From: Mobula hypostoma
Lineage: Eukaryota
Reading direction: 5' to 3'
NCBI RefSeq assembly: GCF_963921235.1
Contig: NC_086097.1
Location: 83,144,001-83,208,000 of the forward strand
Length of the DNA: 64,000 nt
In this document: in pieces, positions 12,047 to 64,000 of the stretch
How positions within the stretch are numbered: the stretch's first letter is position 1
Layout of the letters: each line of letters begins with the position of its first letter
The notes under the pieces: generated by a model
Databases searched by the model: none
Seen by the model: only the letters and a program-made list of their open reading frames with translations
What the model was told of the DNA's origin: nothing
Program-made: the position numbers and the translations under genes

Positions 12047-12484
12047 ATTCTTTCCTACCTATTCATTTGAAATAATTACATGGAGTTACCAAAGAACTGG
12101 GTGGACGGTCATCAGCTTGGAACATCAGAGCCATCAAAAATCAGCATTTATTTGAAGCTGGGGCATGCCAATGTTACAAACATTGCTTACAAACAGATCT
12201 CAGCTCTGGCTTTTTCTTCCTGCATGAAGAAACTTGTGAAGTAATCCAAGGCAAAATGCTAAGACTGCTGTGATGACTACATGTAAACTATCCAAGAAAG
12301 AATACTGGAAAATCTGTCTTGTAAAACTCCTCCTTTACACGTGGCAGGTTGTCTCAGACCTTGAGGTGAGACTCAACTGAGAAAATTCACCGCCTCTTCA
12401 TGATAGCAGACAGAGAATAAGTAATCCTTAGAACAACTAAGCTGATGGAGGAACTTGGAGGGTCAAGCAGCATTTGTGAGGGCA

Positions 12485-13098
12485 AACACGAGAAAATCTG
12501 TGGATGCTGGAAATCCAAAGCAACACACACAAGATGCTGGAGGAACACAGCAGGCGAGGGAGCATCTACAGAAAAGAGTAAACAGTTGATGTTTTGGGCT
12601 GTGACCCTTCATCCAGACTGGAAATGAAGGGGAGAAGTCAGAGTACAAAGTTAGGGGAGGGCAGGGAGAAGTACAAGGTGGGAGGTGATAGGTGAAACCG
12701 GGAGAGGAGGAGGGGGTGAAGTAAGGAGCTGGGAAGTTGATTGATAAAAAGGGCAATCTAATAGGAGGAGAGGAGGAGGATCTGGTGCTCCGCCCCTTTC
12801 CTTTCTTCTATGATCTTCTGTCCTCTCTTATCAGATTTCCCCTCTCCACCCCTTTATCTGTCTCACTAATTGACTTCCCCGCTCTTTACTTCAGCTCCTC
12901 CCCCTCTCCCGGTTTCACCTGTCATCTACCACGTTCCCCTTCTTCCTCCCCTTCCCCTGCCCCACCTTCTTACTCTGACTTCTCCTCTTCTCTTCCTTTC
13001 CAGTCCTGATGAAGGGTCTCGGCCTGAAACATTGACTGTTCACTCATTTCCATAGATGCTGCCTGGCCTGCTGAGTTCCTCCTGCATTTCGTGTGAGT
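12485..13098. mobile_element. Penelope-like terminal repeats as an inverted pair, each with a hammerhead motif
   Basis: 12485-12780 (-) and about 12790-13098 (+) are imperfect reverse complements and are related to the terminal region of the GIY-YIG element at 26422-27027. Confidence 0.75.
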
Positions 13099-13249
13099 TA
13101 GTTACAGAGCATGTTACAGATAAATTTACCTTTAACTCTCGTCCTGGATCAGGCATTACCTGAATTAAATTATTCACATTCAAGAGCTGGTGGCATGCAA
13201 ATCGTTAGTGTTATTTCCAGTTTCTAATATTTATAAAAAACTATGTGGG

Positions 13250-15624: not shown

Positions 15625-15780
15625 GAAATAGGTGAACAGATAATCGACGTTTCGGGTCGCGACCTTTCACCTGGACAGTCCGGATGAAGGGTCTCGACCC
15701 GATACTTCGACTGTGCATCTCCCGACACAGGCACTGCCCGACCTGCTGAGTTCCTCCAGCATCTTGTTTGATGCTCCTGA
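15625..15780. mobile_element. Short palindromic pair of Penelope terminal fragments with degenerate hammerhead motifs
   Basis: TCGACGTTTCGGGTCGCGACCTTTCACCTGGAC directly abuts its inverted counterpart AGTCCGGATGAAGGGTCTCGACCCGATACTTCGA. Confidence 0.65.
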
Positions 15781-15824
15781 TCCCTAGCATATCGAACAAA
15801 AATAAAAATGATGTGTATTATATT

Positions 15825-15954
15825 CCTGACGAAGGGTCTCGGCCTGAAACGTCGACTGCACCTCTTCCTAGAGATGCTGCCTGGCCTGCTGCGTTCACCA
15901 GCAACTTTTATGTGTGTTGCTTGAATTTCCAGCATCTGCAGAATTCCTGTTGTT
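15825..15954 (+). mobile_element. 130-bp Penelope terminal-repeat insertion beginning at the hammerhead core, 11-bp TSD
   Basis: TGTATTATATT flanks it at 15814-15824 and 15955-15965. The insert starts CCTGACGAAGGGTCTCGGCCTGAAACGTCGACTG. Confidence 0.85.
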
Positions 15955-16399
15955 TGTATTATATTTCTATACGCCATGGAACAAGATCGTTCAGTCCACC
16001 AAGTCGGTGCTGGCTCTCAGAGTTACCCCATCAATTATTCCCCCACACGCGCTTATCAACCCCTCCCCGATCTGATACTCCTGCCAACAGAGCACAGTGC
16101 GGTTATTTACAGAAGCAGGTGCGCACGTCTTTGGGTTATTATGCGGGCTGGGCACACGATCACAGAGAGAAGGTGTAAATTCCACGCAGATATCTCCAGT
16201 GGTCAGATCACATATTTGCAGTGTATGCTGATCTAAATCATGTTGACTATTACGCATTGATCTGCACTTTGGGAAGTACTTGGCATCTTAGAAACCAAGT
16301 TCTGTTTTATAATCAGAGAACAATAGTCCGGTAAAAATTAGAGCGACTGTCTTTCCCCAATCAATCCCCTCGCTAAAGGTGTGTTCTTTGGAACGTAGA

Positions 16400-17472: not shown

Positions 17473-18689
17473 TAGGGCACAAGAGACAAATGAAATGAAG
17501 TGACATAGGTGACAACTGGGGATCGCTTCCAGATTAGCGCAATGCCTTCTATGCTCGCTTTAACGTCAAAGTACGGAGGTATCTTCACGAAGTCCCAAAA
17601 CCCCTCCCCCATGACTCTGTGATTTCAGCCTCTGAGGTCAACGGAGGACATCCTTCAGGAGGGTGAACCCACGGAAAGCAACTGGCCCAGGTGAGGTATC
17701 TGGTCAAATACTAAAGACCTGCTCAACTGACTGGTGTGTTAACCAATATCATTAACCTCTCACTTTGGCAGTCTGAGGTAAGTTTTGCTTCAAGCAGGCC
17801 TCAGTCATATCAGGTCTCTAAGAAGAACGTGGTAACCTGCCTCAGTGATTATTGTCCAGAAGCATTTACACCCACCGTCTTGAACTGTTTTGAAGGCTGG
17901 TGATGAAACACGTCAATTCCTGCCTGAGAAGCGACTTGAAGTGTCCTGAAGAAGGGTCTCGGCCCGAATCATCAACTATCCTTTCTCATAGATGCTGCCC
18001 AACCTGCTGAGTTCATTCAGCATTTTGCCTACAGGCACAACATGGCCCCAGCAGATGCCATTTCTTTCGGCTTCACTCAAGCCTGGAACATCCGGGCAGC
18101 AAAAAATACATCAGGGTTCTCTTTACCGATTACAGCTCGACATTCAATAGAAAAATAACCCCCCCCAAAAAAAAACTAATCAATAACCTTCAGGGTGCCT
18201 AGGTCCCTGCTCTGCTCGCTTTACATTTATGACTGTGTGGCTAAGCACAGTTCCGCTGCCATATTCAAGTCTGCTGACAACAGTGTTGTAGGCCGATTCA
18301 AAGGTGTGACGAATCAGCATATAGGAGGGAGATTGAAAATCTGGCTGAGTGGTGCCACAACAGCCTCTCACTCAGTGTCACTGAGACCAAGAAGATGATC
18401 ATTGAAGTTAAGAGGAGGAAACTGCTGGTTCATGAGCCAGTCCTCGTCGGGAGGTCAGAGAAGAGGGTCAGAACTTTAAATTCCTCGGTATTACCATTTC
18501 AGTCTATCTGTCCTGGGCGCAGCGCCTAAGTGCAATTACAAAGAAATCACGACAGTGCCTCTACTCAGAGCTTGCAAAGATTTGGCATGTCATCTAAAAC
18601 TTTGACAAATTTCTATGGATGTGTTGTGGAGAGCATATTGACTGGTTACAACATGGGCTGATATGGAAACAACACCAATGCACTTAATT

Positions 18690-20769: not shown

Positions 20770-21700
20770 GAGTGAAACCGTGGGCAAAACGTGGCCAAAC
20801 GCTGCAAGGATAACTTAAACTGCAAATAATTTTCTTCCTGTTGCTGCTGGGGCTGCAACCCCTCGCTGATAACAGCGTGCAGTTTAATTGCGGGTCGCCA
20901 CCAAGCCCGACCTCCAACTGGCTGGGTGCCCGCCAGACGTGAGCTGCGAGCTGCGAGCGGGGACGGAGGGGCAACGGGGATTGTCAATCAAGCGCGCGTC
21001 ACGGGCCGAGGCTCAATCAGAGCGGAGCGCGCGGCTGGTTTAGGACGCACTCGAGACACTCAGCAACAGGAACGGGAGTGCATTTGCACTCTGCTTCACT
21101 CACGCACTGCTGCTTGAGCTGGGCTTGGTTAAGCACTTTAACAATAAGGACTGGAGCTCTCCGAAATAAAGAGGCAGAGGGGAAACTCGTGAAAACTGTT
21201 ATTACAGAAAACATTCTGAGTTTAATCAGTGCGGCGGCTGCAGGACAATTTAATTTTTAAGTGTTGTAAGTTGCAGCAAAGTCTCTTGGACCTCAAGGCA
21301 TCCTTCAGAAGTTTGTTGCGAATTCTGCCGTTTTCGGGAGTTGTCATGCTGAGGGTGCGGCGTGACGGCGCGGGGTTGCTGGCGGTCTGCTTGCTGTGGT
21401 CTGGCTGTTGGGGAGCCGTGAGCGAACGGCCACAAGAGTGCCGGCCGTGCAGCCGGCAGCAGTGCGAGGAGCCGCGAACTTGTCCGGGCGCGAAGGTGTT
21501 GGATGCCTGCGGCTGCTGCCTGGTGTGTGCCCGGCAGAAGGGGGACACGTGCGGCGAGCTGGACGCCAATCTGGGCAAGTGTGACACGGGTCTGTGGTGT
21601 GTGAATGAAAGCCTGTCCAGTATTGAGGAAGGGGAGGACGGTGACAGTAGCTCCGGAATAGACCGAGGACCGTTGATAGGAGTCTGCAAAGGTGAGCATT
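20770..21700 (+). promoter_or_regulatory. CpG island / promoter and 5' UTR of the IGFBP-domain gene
   Basis: High GC and CpG density (e.g. AGCGCGCGTCACG, GGAGCGCGCGG) against a CpG-poor background. No ATG on + between about 20770 and 21345. CAATCA motifs at about 20985 and 21014. Confidence 0.75.
21346..21691 (+). CDS. First coding exon (signal peptide + IGFBP N-terminal domain) of a CRIM1-like (cysteine-rich motor neuron 1-like) gene
   Basis: GTCATGC start with G at -3, then the hydrophobic leader LLAVCLLWSGCWG. The domain CRPCSRQQCEEPRTCPGAKVLDACGCCLVCARQKGDTCG...GKCDTGLWCV...GVCK carries the IGFBP CGCCxxC motif. 346 nt ends AAAG|GTGAGC (phase 1), as recalled for CRIM1 exon 1 (CEEPRNCPG, GTCDRGLRCV, GVCE|D). 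Symbol withheld because orthology is uncertain. Confidence 0.9.
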
Positions 21701-21911
21701 TTCTATTGCACTTTTAAAAATGTAATCTGCTTATTTTAAATGGGCACAATCACGCATTGTCATTTAGAATATGATTGTTTTAAAGTACTACGGTAAAGCA
21801 GATTTAAATTACCTGGCTGTCAAGTTTACTCACCTGAGAGAGAACGTTGTTGGGCGGATAACGCCACCAAATGGCACAACCTATCAAAAGCAAAGCAAAT
21901 CTTAAAAACCA

Positions 21912-22094
21912 AACACGAGAAATTCTGCAGATGCTGGAAATCAAAGTAACACACACAAAATGCTGGAGGAAGTCAGCAGGCCAGGCGGCATCTGTGGAAA
22001 AGAGTGAATAGTTGACGTTTCGGGCTGAGACCCAAGGGTCTTGGCCGAAACGTCGACTGTTTAATCTTTTTCATAGATGCTGTCTGGCCTGCTG
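21912..22094. mobile_element. Palindromic Penelope terminal-repeat insertion with 15-bp TSD in intron 1
   Basis: AAATCTTAAAAACCA flanks it at 21897-21911 and 22095-22109. Arms 21912-22032 (-) and 22034-22094 (+) meet at GAGACCC-AA-GGGTCTT. Confidence 0.85.
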
Positions 22095-23984
22095 AAATCT
22101 TAAAAACCATCCCGATGTCTCTCAGAATTCAACAGGTTGTGTGTGTTGCTTTGGATTTCCAGCATCTGCAGATTTTCTCGTGTTTGGGACGTCTCTAGGC
22201 TTAGCTTTAAAAGTGTATTCTTTAATACATCAGTCCGTTATAAGATGAAAGTAGTAATTTTTTTAAACGAGTCAATCACGAATGGATGATGCTGCGAACC
22301 ACACTGTTAATGTATTAGTGAAAGGTGTGGCAGACTTGAAGCATGTTAAATCAACAGAAAGAAAAACTTGTACACCGCACCTGTTTAGTCGCAATGTGGT
22401 CTGTTCACAGTGTCCTCGTTCACGTTAGCCAAGATAAATACCCTGGGTTTCCACTGCTTCTCGAATTAGTGTTTGCAAAGTCACTTTCAACGTAATTTTT
22501 GTTTGCAGATATAAATTGCATTAAACATTATACCCGCTAAGATTTGTGACCAGGGTAGCTGTCAGTGCTTCTTTCGTATGCCTCTTGGTGAAGTTCTGGG
22601 GATCAATCGCTGCCTCCTTTTGAGACAACCGTTGCAATTGTCGCATTTTAATTAAAATAACCTCAGAACAGTGAGGTAGAAATTTGGTCTTGTAGAAGGG
22701 TGAAAAGAAAACTGCATGATAACCCTTAAATATCCCCAATATTCATGTTGCACGGCAGCTGGTTAAACTGTTTTCACACCATTTGTGAATTAAACAAGGC
22801 AGCAATCAGGGAAAAAACACAACTTATTTTAGTAAGAGTGCTCTCACTGATGTAGCATTCTGCCTGTAAGCCTAATTCCAGTTCTATACACGCTACAAGA
22901 ATGTAAGGAGTAAATTTTCAGTTGTTAAAATTGCAATGTTAACTTCTGAAGCAAAAGCTTTGGAGGCAAAAACAGATTGAAGTGAAAATATTGCTTTTTC
23001 ATGAGATAAGAATGCTCAATTTCTATAGCTGGCCAGTTTTGCAAAGGTGCTTGGAGAGATGGAACTAGGGCTGTGATGCAATCTGTGTATTGGTAACTAT
23101 ATAATAACGATTTTTTTAAAATGTTGACATGGGATCAAAATTTCTTTTGTCATAGATTTTATGGAGAATGATTTGACAATATATTCCTTTTATCTTTGAA
23201 ATCAAGAGGAGGATATCTCACCACTTTATTTGAGTTGCAGTTGTTCTTGGGAACATAAATCCAAAACCGCTTTCTTCAAGAACAGGTGGAGTTTATTGTT
23301 CTATCTGGGAACAGTTCCTGATGGGATTCTGAATATTTGGACTATAATTTGCTGTAAAAGCAAAATAAACTTCATAATTTGTTTGACCAGATCTTTTGGT
23401 GCCTGATCAGTTATAACTGGAATAGTAGAGAAGTGTGAGAAAACGTGATTGGAAAGATAAAAAGGGAAAATGACAAAGTTATAAAATTCACATTAAGTTT
23501 TAATGTCTAAGGTACATAATTTATCACATAGCTAAAAGATGGTTGTAGTTCAAATGACAGGACTTAACATTTTTAATTTTTTTTCTGTGGTGTGCTTACA
23601 CAAAATAGAAAACTAATTACTTAACGCACTTCAGTGATGAAATGGGAAAATGCCATCCTTTTTGTACCATAGTGACTCTCTTTCAACATAGACATATAGA
23701 TGACATCTTTGCCTGATACTGTCATCTAGCTGTACAATGCTGTCACTATCACATGGAAGCAAATTCTTCATGTTACAGTATGTTGGTTTAAGATAAATAT
23801 TTGGGTATTGAGGAGGTTCTGAATGGAATGGAAGTAACCCTCACTTCCTCACTCCAAAGAACCCTAAACTTGTGGATCATGAGGAAGTGCTCTTGTTTCC
23901 CTCAACCCTACAACAGAAGTGACAATGGAGAAAAATTCTTTCCTGTCTGAGCCACTCTTCAACACAGGATTAACCAGGCAGAAA

Positions 23985-24492
23985 TAATTGGAAATTCTCA
24001 GCAGACCAAGCAGCAACTGTAGATGGATTGATATTTCAGGTCAGTAACCAATCGGGGGGAGGGATCTCCACAAATGTTGCCTAACCTGCTCAGTAGTACG
24101 AACATTCTCATTTATTTTTTGATTTTTAGGAACTGCGGTGTTTTGTATCCCAGATTCAGCATCATTTTCTTTTGCTTTCCCCCTATTCACAATCTTTTCC
24201 ATCTATTTAAATGTTTATAGATCTCCTCCAGAGAGATCAATTGTGATACAGCAAACCTTCACCACTCTCTCACAGCCAGCACCACCAGTACTTGTGTTAT
24301 TCAGTCCGCTGGTCTTCATTCTTACATTTGCTTTGTGGTCTCTATCACTCACTTTCTCTGCAAATTAAAGCAAGACACTGAACATTTTATAGTTCTAATG
24401 AAAGGCCATTGCCCTGAAGTGCTAATCCTATTTTTCTCTCCACAGATGCTCTCTGACCTGCTGAGTATTTCCAGCATTTTCTGTTTTTATTT
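23985..24492. mobile_element. Old degenerate Penelope terminal-repeat fragments
   Basis: CAGATGCTCTCTGACCTGCTGAGTATTTCCAGCATTTTCTG and related pieces; hammerhead core eroded. Confidence 0.55.
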
Positions 24493-26060: not shown

Positions 26061-26421
26061 TGAAAAATTATTTATATCTCATTCTTAATGACTCCTCCCT
26101 TATCCAGATACAATGATCTTCCAATACAGGGTCTCCTGTTGGAGAAAAAAATCTTATAACATCTGTTAATCATGCTCAGAGAATCGTATTTATCAATGTA
26201 ATTACCAATCATTCCTCCAAATTCAACTGAGTATTGGTCCATTTACTTGATTTGTTCGACAAAGGACAATTCCCATATCCTGCATATCATTTGTTGTAGC
26301 TGTGTGATGTTATCCCCAAGGCCAGATTCTACCCTTTTGTAAACCGAAACTCTACAGTGTAGTCTAACGGCTGTGTTACTAAGACCCTGTATGAATGCAA
26401 ATCAACTCTTTATCCAACCAC

Positions 26422-27027
26422 GAGGAAATCTGCAGATGCTGGCATTTCAAGCAACACACATAAAAGTTGCTGGTGAACGCAGCAGGCCAGGCAGCATCTC
26501 TAGGAAGAGGTACAGGCGACGTTTCGGGCCAAGACCCTTCGTCAGGACTAACTGAAAGAAGAGCTAGTAAGAGATTTGAAAGTGGGAGGGAGAGGGGGAG
26601 ATCCAAAATGATAGGAGAAGACAGGAGGGGAAGGGATGGAGCCAAGAGCTGGACAATTGATTGGCAAAAGGGATATGAGAGGATCATGGGACAGGAGACA
26701 TAGGGAGAAAGAAAGGGGGAAGCCCAGAGGAGGGGCAAGGAGTATAGTGAGAGGGACAGAGGGAGAAGAAGGAGAGAGAGAAAAAGAATAGATATATAAT
26801 AATAAATAAATAACAGATGGGGTATGAGGGGGAGGTGGGGCATTAATGGAAGTTAGAAAAGTCAATGTTCATGCCATCAGGTTGGAGGCTACCCAGACGG
26901 AATATAAGGTGTTGTTCCTCCAACCTGAGTGTGGCTTCATCTTGATAGTAGAGGAGGCTGTGGATTGACTTATCAGAATGGGAATGGGACATGGAATTAA
27001 AATGTGTGGCCACTGGGAGATTGGCCA
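26422..27027 (-). mobile_element. 5'-truncated Penelope-like element: GIY-YIG endonuclease C-terminus plus terminal repeat with hammerhead; 14-bp TSD
   Basis: ORF 26843..27073 ends NLPVATHFNSMSHSHSD...LRLEEQHLIFRLGSLQPDGMNIDFSNF, typical of PLE endonuclease ends. CTTTATCCAACCAC flanks it at 26408-26421 and 27028-27041. Confidence 0.9.
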
Positions 27028-27418
27028 CTTTATCCAACCACCTTGTACAGAAAGAAATCTCTTGATTTATCATCTGGATAGCTAACTAAACACATGTTAA
27101 ATTTCTGCACTTTGTATACCAAATACTAAGATTCCATTACATATATCATTGCTTACCAATGTCTTTGCATTTAAATGGTATATTTTTGTTATCTTTCAAA
27201 AAAAATCTGTAATTTCCAGACATTACACCTTCTATTAAACATGTTTCAGTATGTTTATAACACTAGAAAACTCTTCCTGTCTCCTTTGCAGTTTATTTTC
27301 TCATCAGTGTTGGGTCTACATTCTGTACATAGTAACAAGCTCCCATAGTGCTACTAAATTCACATGCTTAATTTACATACAAATGTTCAGTTTTACAAAC
27401 AACAGAACTAGTTTTTTT

Positions 27419-27554
27419 CTCCCACTTTCAAATCTCTTACTAACTCTTCCTTCCGTTAGTCCTGACGAAGGGTCTCGGCCTGAAACGTCGACTGTGCCTC
27501 TTCCTAGAGATGCTGCCTGGCCTGCTGCGTTCACCAGCAACTTTGACGTGTGTT
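27419..27554 (+). mobile_element. 136-bp Penelope terminal-repeat insertion with 12-bp TSD
   Basis: ACTAGTTTTTTT flanks it at 27407-27418 and 27555-27566. Near-identical to the reverse complement of about 26453-26588. Confidence 0.85.
27457..27494 (+). ncRNA. Minimal type I hammerhead ribozyme motif (best-preserved copy)
   Basis: Layout: TAGTC (stem I), CTGACGA, AGG-gtctcgg-CCT (stem II), GAAA, CGTC (loopless palindromic stem III with GUC site), GACTG (stem I'). Activity not tested. Confidence 0.8.
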
Positions 27555-28299
27555 ACTAGTTTTTTTTTTCTCTCTGCACTTTTACTGATGTTCTTATCAG
27601 TCTTCTGTTATTTTTATGCCATTCATTACAATGCTGTGGAGGTATGTTTACCAGATTGAGTGATTTTTCGACAAAATCAATTTATGGACATCTGCAAAAA
27701 TGGGACCTGTTTGTTACCCAGGGATGGCATGTAGATTTGACTAGTTGAGACTGGAGTACTGATCTGGAATATATGCATGAAAATATCGGATGGAAGATGA
27801 GTTCAACTATGGTATCTCCACCTGCCATCAAGCAGCCAGATGCCATTCACACACAACCAGTTGAAAAAGGAAAGGAATATATACTTAGGAAGCAGTATCC
27901 CAGCAGGGAGTCATGCTATTAAAGGCAACAGTAGTCAGGGGTGGAATTGTTCTGTGTGGAAAGAAAAGGAATGTGATATCATTCACATCATTTTAAGATG
28001 TTTGTCCATTCTGCTTTATCAATGGGCTGAGGAAAATTACAGATTTGAATGGTGATCCCACAATTTATTGCAGTATCTTTTAATTTCCATTACATGAGAA
28101 TGTGGCAATGGTGGTCAGAAAAACATTGTCATAGCCCACAGGTAAGTGGCAAGATTGATGGGAAAACACATGCTTATCATATTGTATATTTATATAACAT
28201 GGTGTGTTGTTCCTTTCCACACCTTGTGGTGCATCAGGCAGCAATCTTGCTATTTCTTTAGCATTTTTGACTGTTTTGCTAACTCAACGCATTAACTTA

Positions 28300-29404: not shown

Positions 29405-32400
29405 CATAAGATTAGGAGCAGAATGAGACCATTTGGCCAATCGAATCTGCTCTGCCATTTCATCAGTGTTGTTCCAATTTTCTTCTCAGCCCCAGCCTCT
29501 GACCATATCCTTTCATGCCCTGACAATCAAGAATTTATCATCCTCTGCTTTAAGTATACATAAAGACTTGGCCTCCACAACTGCCTGTGGCAAAGAATTC
29601 CACAGATACACCACTTTCCAGCTAAAGGAATCCTCCCCATCAATTCTGAAAGGAGGCCCCTCTATTCTGAGGCTGCGTCCTCTGGTCCTAGACTCTCCCG
29701 CCATAGGAAACATCTTCTCCACATCCATTCTAACAAGACCTTTCACCATTCAATGGGTTTCAACGAGGTCACCCCTCATTCCTGTAAACTCCAGTGAGTA
29801 TAGGCCCAGAGCCATCAAATGTTCTTCATATGACAAACCATTCAATCATTGAATCATTTTTGTGAACCTCCTTTGAACCCTCTCCAGTTTCAGTGTATCC
29901 TTTCTAAGATAAAGGGGCCCAAACTGCTCACAATACTCCCAAGTGAGGCCTCGCCAGTGCTTTATAAAGTCTCAACATTACATCCTTGCTTTTATATTCT
30001 AGTCGTCTTGAAATGAATGCTAATGTCGCAGTTGCCTTCCTCACACAGACTCAACCTGTAAATTAACCTTTAGGGAATCCTGCACAAGGACTCTCAAGTC
30101 CCTCTGCACCACAGTTTTTGTATTTTCTCTTAACTTAAAAAGTAGTCAACCCTTTCATTGCTTCTACCAAAATGCATGACCATACAGTCCCAACACTGTA
30201 TTCCATCTGTCATTTCTTTGCCCATTTTCCTAATCTGTCTAAGTCCTTCTGTAGCCTCTCTACTTTCTCAAAACTACCTGCCCCTCCACCTACCCTCATA
30301 TCGTCTGCAAACTTTGCAACAAAGCCATCAATTTCATCACCCAAATCATTCACATAAAACGTAAAAAGAATTGGTCCCAACACACACCCATGTGGAGCAC
30401 CACTAATCACTGGCAGCTAACCAGAAAAGACTCCCTTTATTCCCACTCTTTACCTCCTGCCAATCAGCCACTGTTTTATCTGTGCTAGAATCTGTCCTGT
30501 AATACCATGGGGTCATAGCTTCTTAAGCAGCGTCATGTGTGGCACCTTGTCAAAGGTTTCTGACAATCCAAGTATGCATCATCAACCAATTCTATTTTGT
30601 CCATCCTGCTTGTTATTTCTTCAAAGAATTCCTACAGATTTGTTAGGCAAAATTTTCCCTTGAGGTAACCGTGTTGACTACAGCTATTTTATCATGTGCC
30701 TCCAAGTACCCTGAGACCTCATCTTTAATAATTGACTCCAACATCTTTCCAACCACTGAAGTCAGGCTAACTGACCTATAGTTTCCTTTCTTCTACTTCT
30801 CTCCCTTCTTGGAGTGGAGTGACATTTGCAATTTTCCAGTCTTCTGGGACCATTTCCAGAATCTAGTAATTCTTTGAAGATCATTACTGATGCCTCCACA
30901 ATCTCTTCAGCCACCTCTTTTGGAACACTGGAATGTACACCATCTCATCTAGGTGACTTAGGTACTTAAGACCTTTCAGTTTCCCAAGAACCTTCTCTCT
31001 AGCTAAGGTAACTTCACACACTCAATGACCCCTGACACCTGGAACTTCCTCCATACTGCTAATGTCTTCCACAGTGAAGACTGATGCAAAACACTTACTC
31101 AAAGTTTGTCCGCCATTTCGTTGTCCTGTCATGGTCCGGATCAGGGTCCCTTTAAATTTACCTTGTTTATGTTACGATCTGGACCGTTGATTCCCTGTTT
31201 TCCCGTGTCCCTCGACTTTGGTGATTAGAGGCAATTAACACTCGGCCAAACCGGTAGTTTATAGTCTCCAGCTTTCAGCCGTTCGATGCGAGAGCGTCTG
31301 CAAAGTCATCAAAGGTACGGTGTGCCGATGTCATCTGGCCGGAGCAAGCCTAGTCTCTGTCGGAGCGTGTGCCAGTAATTTGCCCTTCCTCACCGGAGCA
31401 ACCCTGTCTAGTTACCTCGCCAAAGCGAGCCTGCAAAGTTTCCTCACCGAGGTGGGTCCGTCAGTTAACCCGCCAGAGGGAATCAAGAACCGCTGTCTAC
31501 TGTTCCTGGGTCGAGTCGAGAGCTCGCCACTACCCGGAGGTTCCAAATCAAGTCCTGGCCCTGGCGGCATTCAAGTTCCAGCCCTGGCGGCATTCAAGTT
31601 CCAAGTCAAGTCCTGGCCCTGGCAGTCTGTGATTCCTGTCCTACCCCCTTGTCTGCACTCGAGCTCCAAGTCAAGTCCTGGCCCTGGCGGCAGTCGAGCT
31701 CCAAGTCAAGTCCTGACCCTGGCGGGATTCGAGCACCAAATCAAGTCCTGGCCCTGGCGGCATTCGAGCACCAAGTCAAGTCCTGGCCCTGGCAGCTTCC
31801 CAGTTCTGAGTCAAGTCCTGGCCCTGGCGGTCTGTGATTCCTGTCCTACCCCCTTGTCTGAATCCCTTCTGTGGCCCCACTCACCTCCAGCCCTTGTATG
31901 CAGCCCCCGCCTGCACTTCGGTCTAGTTCCATCGCCGGAGCTAGATAGGTACTGTCTGGTGTTCATTCGTGTTGGTCTTGTCTTGTCTTGTCCTCGCCTC
32001 TGTGGGGTAAGTCAGGCCGCCTTGCCGTTGCTCCACGGGGGGGTCATGTCTTGTCTTGTTTGGTCCTCGCCTCCGTGGGGGTAAGTCTGGCCATCTTGCT
32101 GTTGCCCCGCGGGGAGTCATGTCTTGTCTTGTCTTGTCCTCGCCTCCATGGGGTAAGTCAGGTCGTCTTGCAGTTGCCCCGTGGGGGGGTCATGTCTTGT
32201 CCTCGCCTCCGTGTGGTAAGTCAGGCCGTCTTGCCGTTGCCCCACGGAGGGTCATGAGTCCCGGCCCTATGTCCTGTACCCAAGGTGGGGTCCCGGCTCT
32301 CTGTTCTGTGTGTGAGTCCCGGCCCTATGTCCTGTACCCAAGGAGGGGTCCCGACTCTGTGTTCTGTGTATGTGTCCATGGTTCCATGTACCTGCTCTCC

Positions 32401-34039: not shown

Positions 34040-34470
34040 GGTGTGGTAGCGTAATGGTTAGTGCAACACTATTAAAGCTTGGGACATTTTAGAGTTTAAT
34101 TCCGGCGTGGTCTGCAAGGAGTTGGTATGTTCTCTCTGAGTATTGTGTGGGCTTCCTCCAGGTGCTCCAATCTCCTCCCATGGTCCAAAGATGTACCAGC
34201 TAGTAGGTTAATTGATCATTGTAAGTTGTCCTGTGATTAGGTTAGTGGCACAGTAGTGTAGTGGTTAGCACAACGCTTTACAGTACCAGCGATCCGGGCT
34301 CATTTCCTGCCACTGCCTTTAAGGAGTTTGACCACATGGCTTTCCTCCGGGTGCTGCAGTTTCCTCCCACAGTGCAAAGACCTACTGATTGGTAGGTTAA
34401 TTTGTCATTGTAAATTGTTTAAACTGGGGGGTTGCTGGGCAGTCCGGCTTGACAAGCCAGAAGGACTCAA
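34040..34470 (+). mobile_element. Two tandem HE1/V-SINE-like SINEs
   Basis: Heads GGTAGCGTAATGGTTAG (about 34045) and GTAGTGTAGTGGTTAGCAC (about 34253), each followed by the GGGTGCTCC..TTCCTCCCAC..CCAAAGA-type body. Confidence 0.8.
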
Positions 34471-34475
34471 TAAAT

Positions 34476-35748
34476 CAATCACTGTGTCGCTGGGCAGTGA
34501 GGGCAGCTCTGCACTGTAACTCAAATAGATCACTGTGTCACTGGGCAGTGAGGGCAGCTCTACACTGTAACTCAAATAGATCACTGTGTCACTGGGCAGT
34601 GAGGGCAGCTCTACACTGTAACTCAATAAATAGATCACTGTGTCGCTGGGCAGTGAGGGCAGTTCTGCACTGTAACTCAATAAATAGATCACTGTGTCGC
34701 TGGGCAGTGAGGGCAGCTCTACACTGTAACTCAATAAATAGATCACTGTCACTGGGCAGTGAGGGCAGCTCTACACTGTAACTCAATAAATAGATCACTG
34801 TCACTGGGCAGTGAGGGCAGCTCTACACTGTAACTCAATAAATAGATCACTGTCACTGGGCAGTGAGGGCAGCTCTACACTGTAACTCAATAAATAGATC
34901 ACTGTGTCACTGGGCAGTGAGGGCAGCTCTACACTGTAACTCAATAAATAGATCACTGTCACTGGGCAGTGAGGGCAGCTCTACACTGTAACTCAATAAA
35001 TAGATCACTGTCACTGGGCAGTGAGGGCAGCTCTACACTGTAACTCAATAAATAGATCACTGTGTCGCTGGGCAGTGAGGGCAGCTCTACACTGTAACTC
35101 AATAAATAGATCACTGTCACTGGGCAGTGAGGGCAGCTCTGCACTGTAACTCAATAAATAGATCACTGTGTCGCTGGGCAGTGAGGGCAGCTCTACACTG
35201 TAACTCAATAAATAGATCACTGTGTCGCTGGGCAGTGAGGGCAGTTCTGCACTGTAACTCAAATAGATCACTGTGTCGCTGGGCAGTGAGGGCAGCTCTG
35301 CACTGTAACTCAAATAGATCACTGTGTCGCTGGGCAGTGAGGGCAGTTCTGCACTGTAACTCAATAAATAGATCACTGTGTCGCTGGGCAGTGAGGGCAG
35401 TTCTGCACTGTAACTCAAATAGATCACTGTGTCGCTGGGCAGTGAGGGCAGCTCTACACTGTAACTCAATAAATAGATCACTGTGTCGCTGGGCAGTGAG
35501 GGCAGCTCTACACTGTAACTCAATAAATAGATCACTGTGTCACTGGGCAGTGAGGGCAGCTCTACACTGTAACTCAATAAATAGATCACTGTGTCGCTGG
35601 GCAGTGAGGGCAGCTCTACACTGTAACTCAATAAATAGATCACTGTGTCGCTGGGCAGTGAGGGCAGCTCTACACTGTAACTCAATAAATAGATCACTGT
35701 GTCGCTGGGCAGTGAGGGCAGCTCTACACTGTAACTCAATAAATAAAT
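34476..35748. repeat. Minisatellite, about 24 copies of a 51/52/54-bp unit
   Basis: Consensus GATCACTGTGTCGCTGGGCAGTGAGGGCAGCTCTACACTGTAACTCAATAAATA. Variants lose TG or 3 nt of the AATA run. Confidence 0.97.
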
Positions 35749-36747
35749 CAGTGTTGCTGGGCTGGCAGTCTAAATAATAAAAAAAAATTATTGTGAATGC
35801 GAGCTTTTGAAAATTTGTATTGGTCATAATCCGAGTCGCATCATGCCATGTTCTCACACCATGCCTGTGTTTACTAATCCACAGTGGTTCCTGGTTGATT
35901 AATACTGGAGTTACTTTTTCCTTTCAAAATTTATCCTTGTTTTTGTTAGTTTTAATGGCCTTGCTCTTCATCATCTCTGAATCTTCTTTCACTTTTCCAT
36001 TGTTGGTAGATGTGGCCTCACCTGCCAAGGTTTTGAGCACAGGAATTCGCTCCTTAAACATCTGTTTCTCAATCTACCTTTGCCCATTTATTAGATCCTA
36101 CTTGAAACCTATCCATTTGGTTATCATCTTTTGCATTTTGTTCTGCTGGTTGTGTCATAGTGCAGAGTCAGGAAAGAGCCAGAGGCTGGATGTTGGTGCA
36201 TCTGTCTTCTTGTTCTACTGCTTGGCATTGAGTCCAGAAATGAAATGCAAATGTCCTGAGCTGACAAGGCAATTGTAGACCTAACCACCCTCTCAAATGG
36301 CGTATGTTGAATGATTTGATGAATTTAAATGAAATCGTTGACCTTGGTTGAAAAGATAAGTTGTTTGTTCCCATCCATAGATGCTGCCTGATTTGCTGAG
36401 CTCCTCCAGCACATTGTGTGTATTGCTTTAGATTTCCAGTATCTGCAGTACCTCTTATGACCTCTTAAGTTGTTGTTTACTTTACCAAAAATACTGAATT
36501 AAATAAACTCATTCCTTTTAAAATTATGTTTCTTCATCAAAGGCATTTGAAAACTGTTCACGAGCAAAGCCATACAGGGAGCAAGGCCTCAGCACCTGTG
36601 GCTTGCGGTACATTTCATGTATTGGAGTGGGGAGAAGGAAGAAGGAAAGCAAAGTTCTAGGATAGAGGGTGGTTGCAGGGGTGAGGGCTGGTGTAACAGG
36701 TGTAGTTGTTAGAATAGTGTGGGGATCAGTGACGCTCAGACCTATTA

Positions 36748-40499: not shown

Positions 40500-43140
40500 T
40501 GAATGGGCGCCCTTCAATCCTTAAGTCATGCCCTCTCGTACTAGACTCCCCCATCATGGGAAACAACTTTGCCACATCCACTCTGCCCATGCCTTTCAAC
40601 ATTCAAAATGTCTCTGAGGTCCCTCCTCATTCTTCTAAACTCCAAGGAATACAGTCCAAGAGCGGACAAACATTCCTCATATGTTAACCCTCTTATTCCT
40701 GGTATTATTCTAGTGAATCTTCTCTGTACCCTCTCCAAAGTCAGCACATCCTTTCTTAAATAAGGAGACCAAAACTGCCCACAGTACTCCAAGTGAGGTC
40801 TCACCAGCAATTTATAGAGCCTCAACATCACATCCCTGCTCCTATACTCTATTTCTGTAGAAATGAATGCCAACATTGCATTCGCCTTCTTCACCACCGA
40901 CTCAACCTGGAGGGTAACCTTAAGAGTATCCTGCACGAGGACTCCCAAGTCCCATTGCATCTCAGAACTTTGAATTCTCTCCCAATTTAAATAATAGTCT
41001 GTCCGTTTATTTCTTCTGCCGAAGTGCATAACGGTACACTTTCCGACATTGTATTTCATTTGCCACTTCTTCGCCCATTCTTCCAATCTATCCAAGTCTC
41101 GCTGCAGACTCTCTGTTTCCTCAGCACTACTGGCCCCTCCACCTATCTTCATATCATCAGCAAACTTAGCCACAAAGCTATCTGTTCCATAATCCAAATT
41201 GTTGAAGTACAATGTAAAAAGAAGCGGCCCCAACACAGACCCCTGTGGAACACCACTGGTAACTGACAGCCAACCAGAATAGGATCCCTTTATTTCCACT
41301 CTCTGTTTCCTGCCAATCAGCCAACGCCCTATCCACATATGTAACTTTCCCGTAATTCCATGGGCTCTTATCTTGTTAAGTAGCCTCATGTGTGGCACCT
41401 TCTGAAAATCCAAATACACAACATCCACTGCATCTCCCTTGTCTAGCCTACTTGTAATTTCCTCAAAAAATTGTAATAGGTTTGTCAGGCAGGATTCTCC
41501 TTTAAGGAAACCATGCTGAGTTCTGCCTATCTTGTCATATGCCTCCAGGTACTCCATAACCTCATCCTTGACAATCAACTCCAACAACTTCCCTACCACC
41601 GATGTCAAGTAATAAGGTCTATAATTTCCTTTTTGCTTCCTTGCCCCCTTCTTAAATAGCGGAGTGACATTTGCAATCTTCCACTCCTCTGGAACCATGC
41701 CAGAATCTATCGACTTTTGAAAGATAATGGCTAATGCCTCAGCAATCTCCACAGCTACTTCCTTCAGAACACAAGGGTGCATTCCATCTGGTCCGGGAGA
41801 TTTATCTACCTTTAGACTATTCAGCTTCCTGAGTACTTTCTCTGTCGTAATTGTGACTGCGCACACTTCTCTTCCCTGCCACCCTTGAGTGCCCGGTATA
41901 TTGCTGATGCCTTCCTCAGTGAAGACTAATGCAAGATACTCATTCAGTTCCTCCGCCATCTCCTTATCTCCCATTACAATTTCTCCAGCATCATTTTCTA
42001 TCGGTCCTATATCTACTCTCACCTGTCTTTTACTCTTTATATACTTGAAAAAGCTTTTAGTATCCTCTTTGATATAATTTGCTAGCTTCCTTTCATAGTT
42101 CATCTTTTCCCTCTTAATGACCTTTTTAGTTTCCTTTTGTAAGCTTTTCAAAACTTCCCAATCCTTGTCTTTCCACTAATTTTTGCTTCCTTGTATGCCC
42201 TCTCCTTTGCTTTAACTTTGGCTTTGACTTCTCTTGTCAACCACGGTTTCATCCTTTTTCCATTGGAAAATTTCTTCTTGTTGGAATATACCTGTCTTGC
42301 ACCTTCCTCACTTCTCGCATAAACTCCAGCCACTGCTGCTCTGCCATCCTTCCCGCCAGTGTCCCTTTCCAGTCAACGTTGGCCAGTTTCTCTCTCATGC
42401 CACTGTAATTTCCTTTACTGCACTGAAATACCGACACATCAGATTTCGGCTTCTCTTTTTCAAATTTCACTGTGAACTCAATCATGTTATGATCACTGTC
42501 TCCTAAGGGTTCCTTCGCCTCAATCTCTCTAATCACCTCCGGTTCATTACACAATACCCAATCCAGTACAGCCGATCCCCTAGTGGGCTCAACAACAAGC
42601 TGTTCTAAAAAGCCATCTCCCAAACATTCTACAAATTTTCTCTGGAGATCCAGTGCCGAACTGATTTTCCCAATCCACTGGCATGTTAAAATCCCCCACA
42701 ATTATCATAATATTGCCCTTCTGACAAGCCTTTTCTATTTCCTGTTGTAATTTGTAGTCCACATCACTGCAGCTGTTTGGAGGCCTGTATATAACTGCCA
42801 TCAGGGTCCTTTTACCCCTGCGATTTCTTAGCTCAACCCATAAAGATTCTGCACCTTCTGATCCTATATCACCTCTTTCTAATGATTTGATATCATTTCT
42901 TACCAATAAAGCCACGCCACCCCCTCTGCCTACCTGCCTATCCTTCCGATACACCGTGTATCCTTGGACGTTCAGCTCCCAGAGACATGCATCCTTTAGC
43001 CACGTCTCAGTGATGGCCACAATATCATACCTGCCAATCTGTAGCTGTACGACAAGATCATCCACCTTATTCCTTATGCTGCGTGCATTTAAGTATAACA
43101 CCTTAAGACCAGTATTTGGTACTTTTTGCTTTGATTGCAC
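40500..43140 (-). pseudogene. CR1 ORF2 (APE + RT), several frameshifts
   Basis: Overlapping ORFs 42589..43140, 42249..42701, 42148..42333 and 40541..42151 together give one collinear ORF2. Confidence 0.92.
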
Positions 43141-43377
43141 TGCAACTCATCCCAATGGCGACAAATTTGTCCCATCACCTGCCTGTCTTTCCTGACATCT
43201 TTACTGCTCACTATCTTAGATTTATTTCTGTTTTCCCCTTCCTCTGCTCTATCATTCTGGTTCCCATCTCCCTGCCAAATTAGTTTAAACCCTCCCTAAC
43301 AGCTCTATTAAATCTTCCCGCCAGGATATTGGTCCCCTTCGGGTTCAGGTGTAACCTGTCCATTTTGAATACTTCCC

Positions 43378-44207
43378 CTAGAAGATATCCCAATTATCCA
43401 AGAATCTGAAGCCCTGCCCCCTGCACCAGTCTCTCAGCCACGCATTCATCTGCCTGATCCTACTATTCTTGCCCTCACTAGCACGTGGCACAGGTAGCAA
43501 TCCCGAGATTACTACCCTGGAGGTCCTCCTTCTCAGCTTCCTTCCTAACTCCCGGAAATCTCTCTTCAGGACCTCCTCCCTTCTCCTATCTATGTCATTG
43601 GTACCAACATGTACCAAGACAGCTGGCTGCTCACCCTCTCCCTTCAGAATATTCTGGACCCGATCCAAGACATTCTGTACCCTGGCACCTGGGAGGCAAC
43701 ACACCATGCGGGTATCTCTATCAGGCTCACAGAATCTCCTGTCTGTTCCCCTGACTATGGAATCCCCTACGACTACCGCATTCCTCTTCTCCCTCCTTCT
43801 CTCCTGCACAACAGCGTCAGGCTCAGTGCCTAAGACCCAGCCACCGTGGGCGTCCCTGTCAGATCATCCCCCTCAACAGCATCCAGAACAAGATACTTGT
43901 TGCTGAGGGGGACAGCCACAGGGGTGCTCTCCACTATCCGGGCATTTCCGTTCCCTCTCTTGACAGTGACCCAGTTTTCTGACCCCTGTAGCCTAGGGAT
44001 GACTACCTCCCTGTAGCTCCTGTCTATCACCACTTCACTTTCCCTAATAAGCAGTAGGTCATCAAGCTGCAGCTCCAGATCCCTAACACGGTCTCTGAGG
44101 AGCTGCATCTCGGTGCACCCGGCACACTTGTGGCCATCAGGGAGGCTGGAGGTCTCCCAGGATTCCCACAACTGACACCCTGAACAAAGCACTAACTCTG
44201 CAGGTAT
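43378..44207 (-). pseudogene. CR1 ORF1 (zf/lz + esterase), disrupted
   Basis: Split between ORFs 43830..44192 and 43378..43809. The likely start appears mutated to ATA (IPAELVLCSGC). Confidence 0.85.
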
Positions 44208-47200
44208 GCTATCTAATTCTACAGGAGTGAAACAGGAAAAATAAGTCTACTCACCCACTTACCTCGCCAAACAGATGAGCTTTTTAAACCGTTAGCTCAT
44301 ACCGTTAGCTGTGAGAGCCCTGCTGTTCCTGTCTGTCCGGGCCGATTCGCCAAGGGGAGAGAAAAAAAGAGTTGGTGCTTCGCTCTCGCCTCTTCCCATT
44401 ACCGCCAAAGCCCATTGAAGCCAAAGCCCTACACTCTGCTGCCACTCACTCCGCTGCCCGCTGTATGGGGTGGTCTCCTTTTTAAACTCTCCGCGCTGTC
44501 CTGTCTACGTCACGCACCTGCACAGTCTCGTCCTTCTTGCACTTGGAGAAGATTTTTAAAAAACTGCCTTCCTTCAGAATTCAGCTCCCACGCCGCTCTG
44601 CTTGTCCCAATCCAAAAGACAGCCATTGGAAGTAACCTTCCTTTTTAAACTCTCCACGCTGTCCTGTCTATGTCACGCGCCTGTGCAGTCTCGTCCTCCT
44701 TGCACTCGAAGAAATACATGAGATCTGCAACGCTAGAGAAATATTGAATTCCTTCATTAGTTAACTACAACCTTTTTCCATCAGTCACGCCCCTTTTCCT
44801 CCATTCCTCTTCCAAACACACTGAAAACACAGCTTGAATTGTATAATGCTTCCAATGTTTAAAAAAAAAGTTCACAAGTCAGTTTTGGAGAAGTACATTC
44901 TGTTTACTGATGAGCTCTATCTATGTTACAAAAAAAAGGACAAAGTTTAAGATCTAATCATTTAAGTAGATAAATAACAATTCTGTTACCTTGGAATTCT
45001 TTTCCAGGAACTTGTACATATTATAATAAGACACTTATTTCACTCTTTGTTTCTTATGGGCTGGGGGGTGGGAGCTGCAGTGACTGTCACAGAATGAAGG
45101 AGCTATTTTCTGAATGACTTGAAATAATTGGAACAACAAGAAACTTTATTTTCTCATACATTAGTGCTTCTAATATAAATGCTCTAAGACTTTGGGTGGC
45201 ATGAAAGTGGTTGAAGGAATGACAGTTAATCCCAAAGGGGGGAGAGAGAACATTCCAACGGGAATGAAACTTGATACAGAAGTATCCTATGCTGAAATGT
45301 ACAGACTTTATAACAGTTTGTCTCTTTGATTTTACATTTTTCCTCATAACATGTACTTAATAAACATATTGCTTCAACTATTTATGCACCTGGGGAAACC
45401 TGTTAATAAGCAATACTAATTCATTCATTCTAAACTTTTAACAATCAGTACCTTGTCTAAATTACGCTCCAGTATTGCAGTTTAAACTCTGTCCAGTTTT
45501 GAATGGATTTGTGCCTACCTTGTAAATTTATCAAGAGATCTTTTATTTGTTAGACTTTACTTTCTTTTTCCCCACTTGAAAATTTAAAAAGGTAAAATTA
45601 AATAATGGATACTTTTGTTGCTGAGTAAAACAAAGAGGATTAATTTCAAGACATTAATTCATTGACAGATGGAAAAGTAGGTATGAGGGAATTTTATTAT
45701 GATTTTGTGCCAATGAAAAGCAAACATTTTGATATCAAAGCTGGTCAATGCCAGGTCTTTGACTTTGTGTTGAAGGGAAAATGTTCATCATTAGCATTAA
45801 AGTAAGTTGCCCAGGGGGTGTCCGTTGCCTGTACTTTCCTGCTTCATCACAGTGCACCCTGCCCCCCACCCCCACATAACTCTTCAACATTGATTCCTGT
45901 CAGGCATTAATTCAAAAGGGTCCCTGACTTCCAGCACTTGTGGTCCCATCAAGCTGGCTAAGTAGCAAATTCATTAGAGTCCTTGACTGCTAATTGGGGG
46001 GGGGGGGGGGGAAACAAGATAATTGATAGCTTTAACATGTCATGTTATTACATAATTGGCAAATACGTATTTTTTAAAATGAAATAATTGAAAATAATTG
46101 TATTACATCATTATATTCTGAAGTAGTTAGGGAAATTGCAGTGTGCATTCCAAAAATTTATATTTTGTTTTGGTGGTGCCAGAGGAGCTGGAAATCTAGT
46201 TTGCTTTGCCATTAAAATTTGCATTTTATTCCATGAGATCTAATTAATCTTGTGAGGGCGTATTTTTCAGTCAAACTATTTCATCACTTAAATATTCAGC
46301 TGGTTTGCCTTGATTGTATGATGCAGGCCGCAATAGAGTGCAATCAGTGGAAGAGCATTGTACCCCTGACAACAACACTGGGACTTCTGCCTTAAACAAG
46401 GTGCTGTTGGTTTCAAGGCATAATGATGGCAATGGCCGATAATATTACTGATGATAAGCCTCTTTTGTCGTCATTGTAACTCAAGATTTGGGCAAAATAT
46501 TGATTTCAATAATAATGAACATCTGTACAGTTGAATCTAAGTAATCAAGTCAAATGGCTCAAACTGTAAGTTGGTTTGCTAAATTCTTCTTCTGTAATGT
46601 CCAGTTAGGCAGTCTAGACCAAATTTATTGTTACAATATGTGGGGGTGTTGCATTTTGATTAGGAGCCAAGAAGCATCACTGGTTGTTGCAAAACTAAAG
46701 TTGTTTTGGTGTGTTCATGCTAGCAATGAACTAAAAGCATGATGATCTTCAAAAATGATCTGATTTGTCAGAATACATCCATAACCTTATTGCTTTAATT
46801 ACATAATGCTCACTTCTAATCAGAAAGAACATAGTAGCCATACAGTACCGCTGAACAATATGTATTCAACATAAAATTTGCACTTGAGAGTTTGGGAAGA
46901 AGAGTGGCTTGGCCATTTTATTGTATGAACAGATGTAAGACAGATTTATCCCTATTAATTTCTGATTTAAATTTTGTTTATGCACACTTTTTAACATTTT
47001 GGGCTGAGCTAGATGAAGAACTAATTTTTAGTTTGTTCATTTATCGAACTAGTGAAGGAAAATATGTCTGGAGGAGGGCTGACTCATTTCATAGATGGCT
47101 AATCACTATTAAAATCTGTAAAATAATTTTAAAAATTGGCAGTGGATGTTGTTTGTTACCAAATAAAATTTTATCAAAATTGGCTTGCAACCTAACTAGA

Positions 47201-63767: not shown

Positions 63768-64000
63768 AAACACGAGGAAATCTGCAGATGCTGGAAATTC
63801 AAGCAACACACATCGAAGTTGCTGGTGAATGCAGCAGGCCAGGCAGCATCTCTAGGAAGAGGTACAGTCGACGTTTTGGGCCGAGACCCTTCGTCAGGAC
63901 TAACTGAAAGAAGAGCTAGTAAGAGATTTGAAAGTGGGAGGGGGAGGGGGAGATCCAAAATGATAGGAGAAGACAGGAGGGGGAGGGATGGAGCCAAGAG
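63768..64000 (-). mobile_element. Penelope terminal repeat running off the window, with hammerhead motif (GAAA>AAAA)
   Basis: Nearly identical to about 26420-26650. Confidence 0.9.

Follow-up and report, generated by a model that had tools for sequence, protein, structure and literature searches.

Minimal type I hammerhead ribozymes (HHRs) in the pseudo-LTRs (pLTRs) of Penelope-like elements (PLEs) are a known class, described in 2014 by Cervera and De la Pena (PMC4209133), who reported that a minimal HHR (min-HHR) of Schistosoma has no activity as a monomer and low activity as a dimer and who proposed a role in the processing of precursor RNA. Eight of nine dimers of the Xenopus retrozyme are reported not to have cleaved. 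According to Frangieh et al. (PMC11167929), the HHR of PAc, a PLE of the anole, cuts only with the element's protein, can be dispensed with during insertion in vitro and yields no ends at its cut in RNA-seq; the PAc tail is the span between two start sites of the reverse transcriptase (RT). Traits already described for PLEs include 5' truncation, a truncated partner in inverted orientation and, optionally, a tail of 30-40 bp (PMC8557442, PMC3846280), and a CX2-5CxxC linker is given by Craig et al. (PMC8557442) as a mark of Neptune and Nematis.

As a case study, we considered a window of 64,000 nucleotides, the whole stretch of Mobula hypostoma DNA analysed here, in which a sequence-only reading had proposed a scattered family of dimer-type hammerheads of the PLE kind. 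The architecture does match the PLE min-HHR consensus, but the motifs are not free-standing: they are the 3' ends of truncated PLE insertions. With a probability of roughly 85%, we read them as minimal type I hammerheads in the 3' pLTR of a Neptune-type PLE, whose copies here are likely dead and whose parent RNA likely pairs through ACGU and cuts after GUC. The scattered copies are likely inactive 5'-truncated insertions, and their identity as PLEs, dead at this locus, is the part of this reading that we hold to be highly probable. The features of the family in the window are listed below.

27458..27493, + strand: minimal type I hammerhead motif in complete form; its stem I is AGTC/GACT with a U-G pair beside it
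26422..27027, - strand: 5'-truncated PLE with GIY-YIG endonuclease end, ORF end at 26843-27025 (P0001)
27419..27554, + strand: 5'-truncated PLE 3' end, short form without tail, with target-site duplication (TSD)
63772..64000, - strand: 3' end of a young PLE, tailed, at 95.6% identity to the 26422 copy, extending past the window edge
15825..15954, + strand: 130-bp PLE end with tail, beginning one base before the HHR core, with 11-bp TSD
12484..13099, both strands: older PLE ends in inverted, head-to-head arrangement, making up the inverted repeat 12522-13099 (70% over 619 nt)
15644..15790, both strands: two PLE ends that meet head to head at the 5' arm of stem I (junction 15676/15677), cores of both arms mutated
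17943..18027, + strand: eroded short PLE end that begins within the 5' arm of stem I, inside degenerate LINE-like reverse transcriptase sequence
21909..22187, both strands: two PLE ends that meet head to head where stem II begins (junction 22033/22034), tails on both arms
24388..24481, + strand: old relic of a related subfamily, degenerate HHR and downstream box (found by nhmmer)
36369..36450, + strand: old relic, downstream box and tail, HHR unrecognisable (found by nhmmer)

The stretch 27457-27494 (+) reads TAGTC-CTGACGA-A-GGGTCTCGGCCT-GAAA-CG-TC-GACTG, with the AGTC..GACT motif at 27458-27493, and has the build that the sequence-only reading gave it, namely both core boxes, stems I and II, a GUC site and a loop-less ACGT. 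The CUGACGA and GAAA boxes are accompanied by an unpaired (bulged) A after A9, a stem II of 4-5 bp (GGGU/GCCU) closed by a CUCG loop, a stem I of four Watson-Crick pairs plus U-G, and an ACGU palindrome in the place of stem III; GUC ends at 27489 and the cut is predicted after C27489. This is the sole copy in the window that retains every hammerhead element.

All five motifs named in that reading are present, as are its eroded copies, within a base or two of where it had put them. The minus-strand copy that it gave as 26514-26550, and that we place at 26513-26550, has an intact core and one stem I mismatch as described, and the G12A that it saw at 63865-63902 (-) is a CpG transition; since G12 is the general base of the hammerhead according to a review of the ribozyme, this copy would be inactive. 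For two copies the description needed adjustment. At 13001-13038 (+), which had been called decayed, CGTC has indeed become CATT, so that the stem III palindrome is gone, but the core itself is intact. At 15825-15858 (+) the core is intact as claimed, with the refinement that the insertion at 15825-15954 starts one base before it, so that the 5' stem I arm (TATTC) is target DNA belonging to the TSD and not element sequence. Eroded copies were located at 12583-12619 (-, ending at about 12619-12620), 15644-15676 (-), 15677-15713 (+), 17943-17977 (+) and 22010-22033 (-)/22034-22058 (+).

Among the nine whole copies examined, four (27457, 26550, 15821 and 13001) keep all 11 core positions, all nine have the bulged A between A9 and 10.1, and the majority have the G10.1-C11.1 pair, which is G-U after CpG decay in 27457, 15821 and 13001. 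The ACGU palindrome is present in five of the nine and lost in the four older ones, and there is no loop 3. With nine copies as seeds, nhmmer returned 13 matches in the window at E<=6e-7 (nine of them the seeds themselves) and 18 at E<=1, adding the relics at 24388-24481 and 36369-36450. The six matches of an Rfam search of the window at E<=5 include no hammerhead, an outcome that we would expect of covariance models faced with loop-less minimal forms. The Rfam match to MIR1858 at 12679-12929 was rejected, being merely the long inverted repeat.

The motif occurs in the window far above chance. A structural min-HHR descriptor matched four times, whereas 200 shuffles averaged 0.015 matches and never exceeded 1; only one of the four matches (27462) shows, in addition, an uninterrupted run of at least 3 stem I pairs together with a palindrome at 15.2/16.2. 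A 28-mer, allowed up to 3 mismatches, matched six times, against none in 100 shuffles. The loosest pattern, CTGANGAN{8,24}GAAAC, is less decisive, with 4 matches against 0.84 expected, a number reached in 2 of 100 shuffles.

The tie that had been proposed between the motifs and the GIY-YIG element at 26422-27027 is borne out, as the HHR at 26513-26550 lies inside this element, on the strand of its ORF and about 300 nt past the stop codon, and the other copies share its downstream box. The element is the longest PLE copy in the window and has exact boundaries, set by a 14-bp TSD, CTTTATCCAACCAC, at 26408-26421 and 27028-27041; the ORF is followed by a C/T-rich 3' region, the HHR and a long 3' end with tail. 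The insertion at 27419-27554 is flanked by ACTAG-T(n)-CTC at 27407-27421 and 27555-27572, with T-runs of unequal length (12-15 bp) and with a 27419 boundary uncertain by 3 nt because CTC fits both sides, and that at 15825-15954 by the 11-bp TSD TGTATTATATT at 15814-15824 and 15955-15965. TSDs of 14, 12-15 and 11 bp were thus found at three of the seven insertions searched, with none convincing at the three hairpin loci and 17943.

Downstream of the motif, the copies share one linker, then the GATGCTGCC box and then either of two ends, the motifs sitting about 65 or 100 nt from the PLE 3' end. The short end, ...GTGTGTT, is found at 27554, about 13099 and about 18027, and the long one, which runs about 35 nt further (the PLE 'tail'), in the copies at 26422, 63772, 15954 and 12484 and in both arms of 21909-22187. 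The downstream box accompanies the HHR in all copies that have one but the short 15644-15676 arm. Between the short copies and the ORF-bearing copy, identity is 93-95%. Head-to-head inverted pairs occupy three loci in the window: in the pair at 12484-13099, the left arm (-) carries a tail and an eroded HHR (12583-12620) and the right arm (+) an HHR (13001-13038) and no tail, and in that at 21909-22187 neither arm has a CUGANGA box. A tblastn search of the window found PLE protein similarity only in the 26.7-27.1 kb piece and no full-length pLTR-ORF-pLTR tandem copy; no full-length or tandem element of this family was otherwise seen in the window, and the start of the ORF was not found there.

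The 60 last residues of the ORF (P0001), which gave four matches among 12 candidate proteins, are 86%, 81% and 85% identical to the Mobula and Hypanus proteins P0002-P0004 (86% and E 1.2e-23 for Mobula P0002). These relatives carry an RT YIDD motif, a CX4CxxC linker and a GIY-YIG-type motif; the zinc-finger linker region seen in them is absent from the truncated window copy. A Pfam scan of P0001 gave no match, and the Pfam GIY-YIG match of P0002, at 20.9 bits, is below the cut-off of 22.6. A search with P0002 returned 63 long RT proteins at E<=1e-20, and P0002 is 50% identical to the full-length P0012 (E 1e-103), whose last 76 aligned residues match the Neptune1_Ap row in the supplement of Craig et al. 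(PMC8557442) at 73 of 76 positions when compared by eye. The element would therefore be classed as an EN+ PLE of Neptune type, a placement made through the linker, which is common to Nematis too, and through the similarity of P0012 to Neptune1_Ap.

We then considered related elements, scanning metagenomes with alignment A3; the best 80 of 448 confirmed stretches were kept, and 42 of these have an endonuclease (EN) end plus at least 300 nt of 3' flank. A min-HHR in sense orientation lies within 1200 nt of the EN end in 19 of the 42 loci, mostly 90-190 nt downstream, and the descriptor has no match in the other 23; as controls, none of the 42 ORF interiors matched and there were no antisense matches. 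The motif of one locus, L009, is identical to the Acropora digitifera Neptune row of Fig. S3 of Cervera and De la Pena (PMC4209133). Of the 20 relative matches, 17 have at least 3 stem I pairs. Ten of the 20 were aligned with two window copies; the ten set aside were nine near-duplicates from the L009 and L076 families and a second match in L032 that has no stem. In these 12 rows, 97.6% of cells pair, with 28 double-sided changes against 9.3+/-2.4 in shuffles. Because the descriptor required stem II, the share of this covariation that falls in stem II is circular. Stem I was not required by the descriptor, and there 35 of 36 cells are paired, with 19 double changes against 6.6+/-1.9 in shuffles and with 25-33% of cells paired in slid controls. 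The catalytic core, for which the descriptor had selected, is invariant across the 12 sequences while the stems covary. The covariation of stems I and II that had been suggested as a check is therefore found across related elements, but is undetectable among ten window copies alone (86.7% pairing and no covariation beyond shuffles, the one double change being reached by 433 of 500).

Among the same relatives, the min-HHR at L040:2763-2803 has AGCU instead of ACGU as its stem III palindrome, a putative compensatory change that fits the dimer model. Two loci each hold a 5'-truncated partner in inverted orientation that brings a further HHR on the other strand (L009:1912-2505 / 3696-4286 and L063:424-751 / 1946-2280). 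Exact-motif scans of viral contigs and of metagenome contigs gave no match, and a protein scan of viral contigs gave three pattern matches and no relative.

Conservation was compared between three young and two old copies of the window. Identity in the HHR (0.71-0.89) exceeds that in the 40 nt upstream (0.58-0.62) and in the linker (0.53-0.65), so that between subfamilies the HHR is better kept than these flanks; the downstream box (0.77-0.84) equals it. As this 30-nt box is as conserved as the HHR, the latter is a constrained island in the parent lineages, and not the sole one. The window copies themselves decay neutrally and their core is unprotected: measured from the majority of the nine whole copies, differences fall in 9 of 99 core cells, 17 of 171 non-core non-CpG cells and 19 of 90 CpG cells.

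This PLE family is extremely abundant and has several subfamilies. Positions 26300-27700, compared with public DNA runs at 85% likeness, matched 197,281 and 176,429 contigs in two runs (figures that are not copy numbers), and the summed contig depth is in the millions over the element against 8-90 over most flank bins. The largest loose-end piles among those listed lie at the HHR edges, at 27458 (579 and 412 contigs) and 27495 (513 and 407), the loose sequence being the flanks of other subfamilies; 3047 further loose-end rows exist beyond these. In each of two runs guessed to be RNA, about 10,500 contigs matched the element and hardly any matched its flanks; because such contigs give no strand, ends or level, we do not count these matches as evidence of expression. 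Among the public-run contigs listed there is no pile of starts or ends, and the 15 joints listed of 1051 include no empty-site joint. For the 26422-27027 insertion, only the 5' junction is bridged in a second organism (31-letter rule, X5 record 32).

As there is no loop 3, a monomer would be unable to close stem III. On its own, the 38-mer is predicted to adopt a different hairpin, with a folding energy no better than that of shuffles (z -1.24), and within the motif's own 3' context the prediction gives stem I p<=0.01. The predicted optimum for two copies is a symmetric dimer, with stems I, II and III all intermolecular, 8.3 kcal/mol below two monomers. In plus-strand RNA of the window, 124 of the 132 bases of the copy at 27423-27554, including 36 of its 38 HHR bases, are predicted to pair with 26453-26584, so that the motif at 27458-27493 is predicted to be locked in a duplex with this inverted copy 0.9 kb upstream. 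These two inverted copies are 93% alike and lie 0.9 kb apart; a long RNA duplex is predicted from either strand and is a possible substrate for A-to-I editing.

The cycle that we envisage for the parent would begin with the transcription of an intact tandem element. Two HHRs would supply the stem III that each lacks by pairing ACGU:ACGU between molecules, probably with help from the element's own protein, and their slow cleavage would reduce multimeric transcripts to unit length. A/T-rich DNA would be nicked by the RT/GIY-YIG protein, and reverse transcription, mostly on uncut RNA, would start at either of two sites lying 65-100 nt past the HHR and would usually stop early, leaving short HHR-bearing stubs without function of their own. 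Dimer cleavage is a step that we infer for this family from the literature, where activity is low or protein-dependent. In view of the predicted folding, the low published dimer activity and the dependence of PAc on its protein, slow and probably protein-assisted dimer cleavage in the parent RNA is something that we favour with modest confidence, well below that placed in PLE identity and dead local copies.

The 5' ends of the insertions bear on what the motif does in the parent. Those of the short copies (15825, 17943) and the hairpin centres (15676/15677, 22033/22034), a small set of cases, fall in the span from the stem I 5' arm to where stem II starts; none of the window's copies has a clear start at the ribozyme cut site, and 10 of the 15 joints listed (of 1051, leaving 1036 further joints) end at 27458-27472, a weak count made at 85% likeness with sides of 21-30 letters. 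Sharp 5' ends at the outer edge of the hammerhead could mark a defined step of PLE transposition, either a 3' splice site at stem I, whose use would remodel the ribozyme, or a folded (dimeric, protein-bound) ribozyme that stops the RT and sets off the fold-back from which the inverted arm is made; this proposal is speculative and we consider it unlikely, but if it were true, the role of the ribozyme in the PLE cycle would be readable from insertion junctions, given the abundance of copies. The same ends and, weakly, the same joints would suit a motif that the parent retains for its structure or as a signal, whether to bind protein in folded form, to make the RT pause or switch template, or to provide the context of a splice acceptor; self-cleavage would then be weak or incidental to transposition, and PLE identity unchanged. 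Such an account also gains from the older copies, in which a pyrimidine tract and CAG end on the stem I 5' arm, the arm on which an intron end likewise falls in D. virilis (PMC4209133), from the independence of PAc insertion from HHR cleavage (PMC11167929) and from the proliferation of Naiads without canonical HHRs (PMC8557442). It fits less well with a core that stays invariant in 12 aligned sequences while the stems covary (a core selected by the descriptor) and with the compensatory rescue of PAc cleavage at C3-G8 (PMC11167929); moreover, the joint counts are weak and subfamily homology ends at 27458 anyway. We regard it as possible, if doubtful. The tracts with CAG of the older subfamily lie at 12985-13003 (+) and 12618-12640 (-), and in most copies the ATG of the conserved downstream box has a second pyrimidine tract with YAG before it (13039-13058, 27495-27512); by their sequence, these sites may be splice acceptors of a PLE intron.

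Upstream of the complete motif, 21346-21691 (+) has a signal-peptide-like start and an IGFBP domain (Pfam PF00219, E 8.6e-10) and ends in a GTGAG donor; a donor-like site on the minus strand near 21826-21834 may belong to a divergent transcript. A host function would mean that at least one copy, most likely 27458-27493 in the sense strand of a presumed intron of the IGFBP-domain gene, has been domesticated and cuts the host pre-mRNA; this reading draws on the completeness of this motif, on its position on the plus strand downstream of that exon and on the neighbouring 26422-27027 insertion, which is common to the second organism by its bridged 5' junction. The motif has no core-intact partner on the same strand downstream of that exon in the window, nearly all of the motif's bases are predicted to be held by the inverted copy, and the copies decay neutrally; a host role of 27458-27493 is unlikely, and domestication seems to us extremely improbable. 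Autonomous spread of the motifs as tandem units of a non-LTR retrozyme or SINE would accord with copies of just 85-136 bp that have TSDs, and PLE pLTR-derived retrozymes have been published from one chondrichthyan. Yet the 5' ends of our copies range from inside the HHR to inside the ORF, the short copies are as close to the ORF-bearing copy as noted above, and no motif overlaps any of the 11 tandem-repeat rows, for which reason a tandem retrozyme organisation was rejected: by the definition of at least 2 consecutive HHR units, this is not a retrozyme. We therefore give this origin very little credence and keep to truncated insertions of a Neptune-type PLE, for which annotation should treat the motifs as repeat debris and not as regulatory ribozymes of a host gene.

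Elsewhere in the window, 40541-44246 (-) is a fairly well-preserved CR1-type LINE with esterase-like ORF1 pieces, an AP endonuclease and a 544-aa RT stretch, and 34465-35762 and 31558-32377 hold a 54-bp minisatellite (24.6 copies, 95% matches) and arrays of 35/36/58/73-bp repeats. The ORF pieces at 60863-61797 resemble a broken Tc1-type transposase; a Pfam scan of one of them gave no match.

The family should be a useful resource, being extremely abundant, divided into several subfamilies and drawn from a lineage missing from the published min-HHR alignment, as the 56 rows of Fig. S3 in PMC4209133 include no cartilaginous fish; with so many insertion junctions gathered around a single ribozyme, it could contribute to testing what PLE hammerheads do in vivo. 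Our literature search, outside which lie Repbase, Dfam, the paper of Lunse et al. and the bioRxiv supplements, any of which may list it, returned no paper describing this cartilaginous-fish PLE hammerhead family. With the min-HHRs of Cervera and De la Pena (2014, PMC4209133) it has in common CUGANGA, an unpaired H, a stem II beginning with G10.1-C11.1, GAAA, a palindromic 15.2/16.2 followed by UH, a short stem I and a U-rich upstream flank, as well as mostly single motifs on truncated PLEs and opposite-strand pairs 100-700 bp apart; it differs from them in its own stem sequences. The dimer-cleaving PLE variants of Lunse, Weinberg and Breaker (RNA Biol 14:1499, as cited in PMC6765202) likewise have a palindromic, extremely short stem III.

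Neptune EN+ PLEs (Craig et al. 2021, PMC8557442), of which Neptune1_Ap is the nearest named and the Acropora digitifera Neptune HHR the nearest ribozyme, share with the Mobula family a C-terminal GIY-YIG, the CX2-5CxxC linker (in the relatives P0002-P0004), 5' truncation, an inverted partner copy, an optional 30-40-bp tail and an HHR after the ORF. By contrast, the Mobula family has a very high density, its linker is truncated away in the window, and its HHR follows the stop codon after about 300 nt of C/T-rich sequence, a distance that is about 90-190 nt in most loci of the invertebrate type. PAc, a Poseidon of Anolis (Frangieh et al. 2024, PMC11167929), also has a pLTR HHR upstream of two RT start sites, tailed and tail-less ends and A/T-rich targets, but belongs to another clade and its ORF starts inside the HHR. 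The non-LTR retrozymes (bioRxiv 10.64898/2026.07.22.740005) likewise carry a type I HHR of PLE pLTR origin, and are tandem arrays, whereas the Mobula copies are dispersed or head-to-head.
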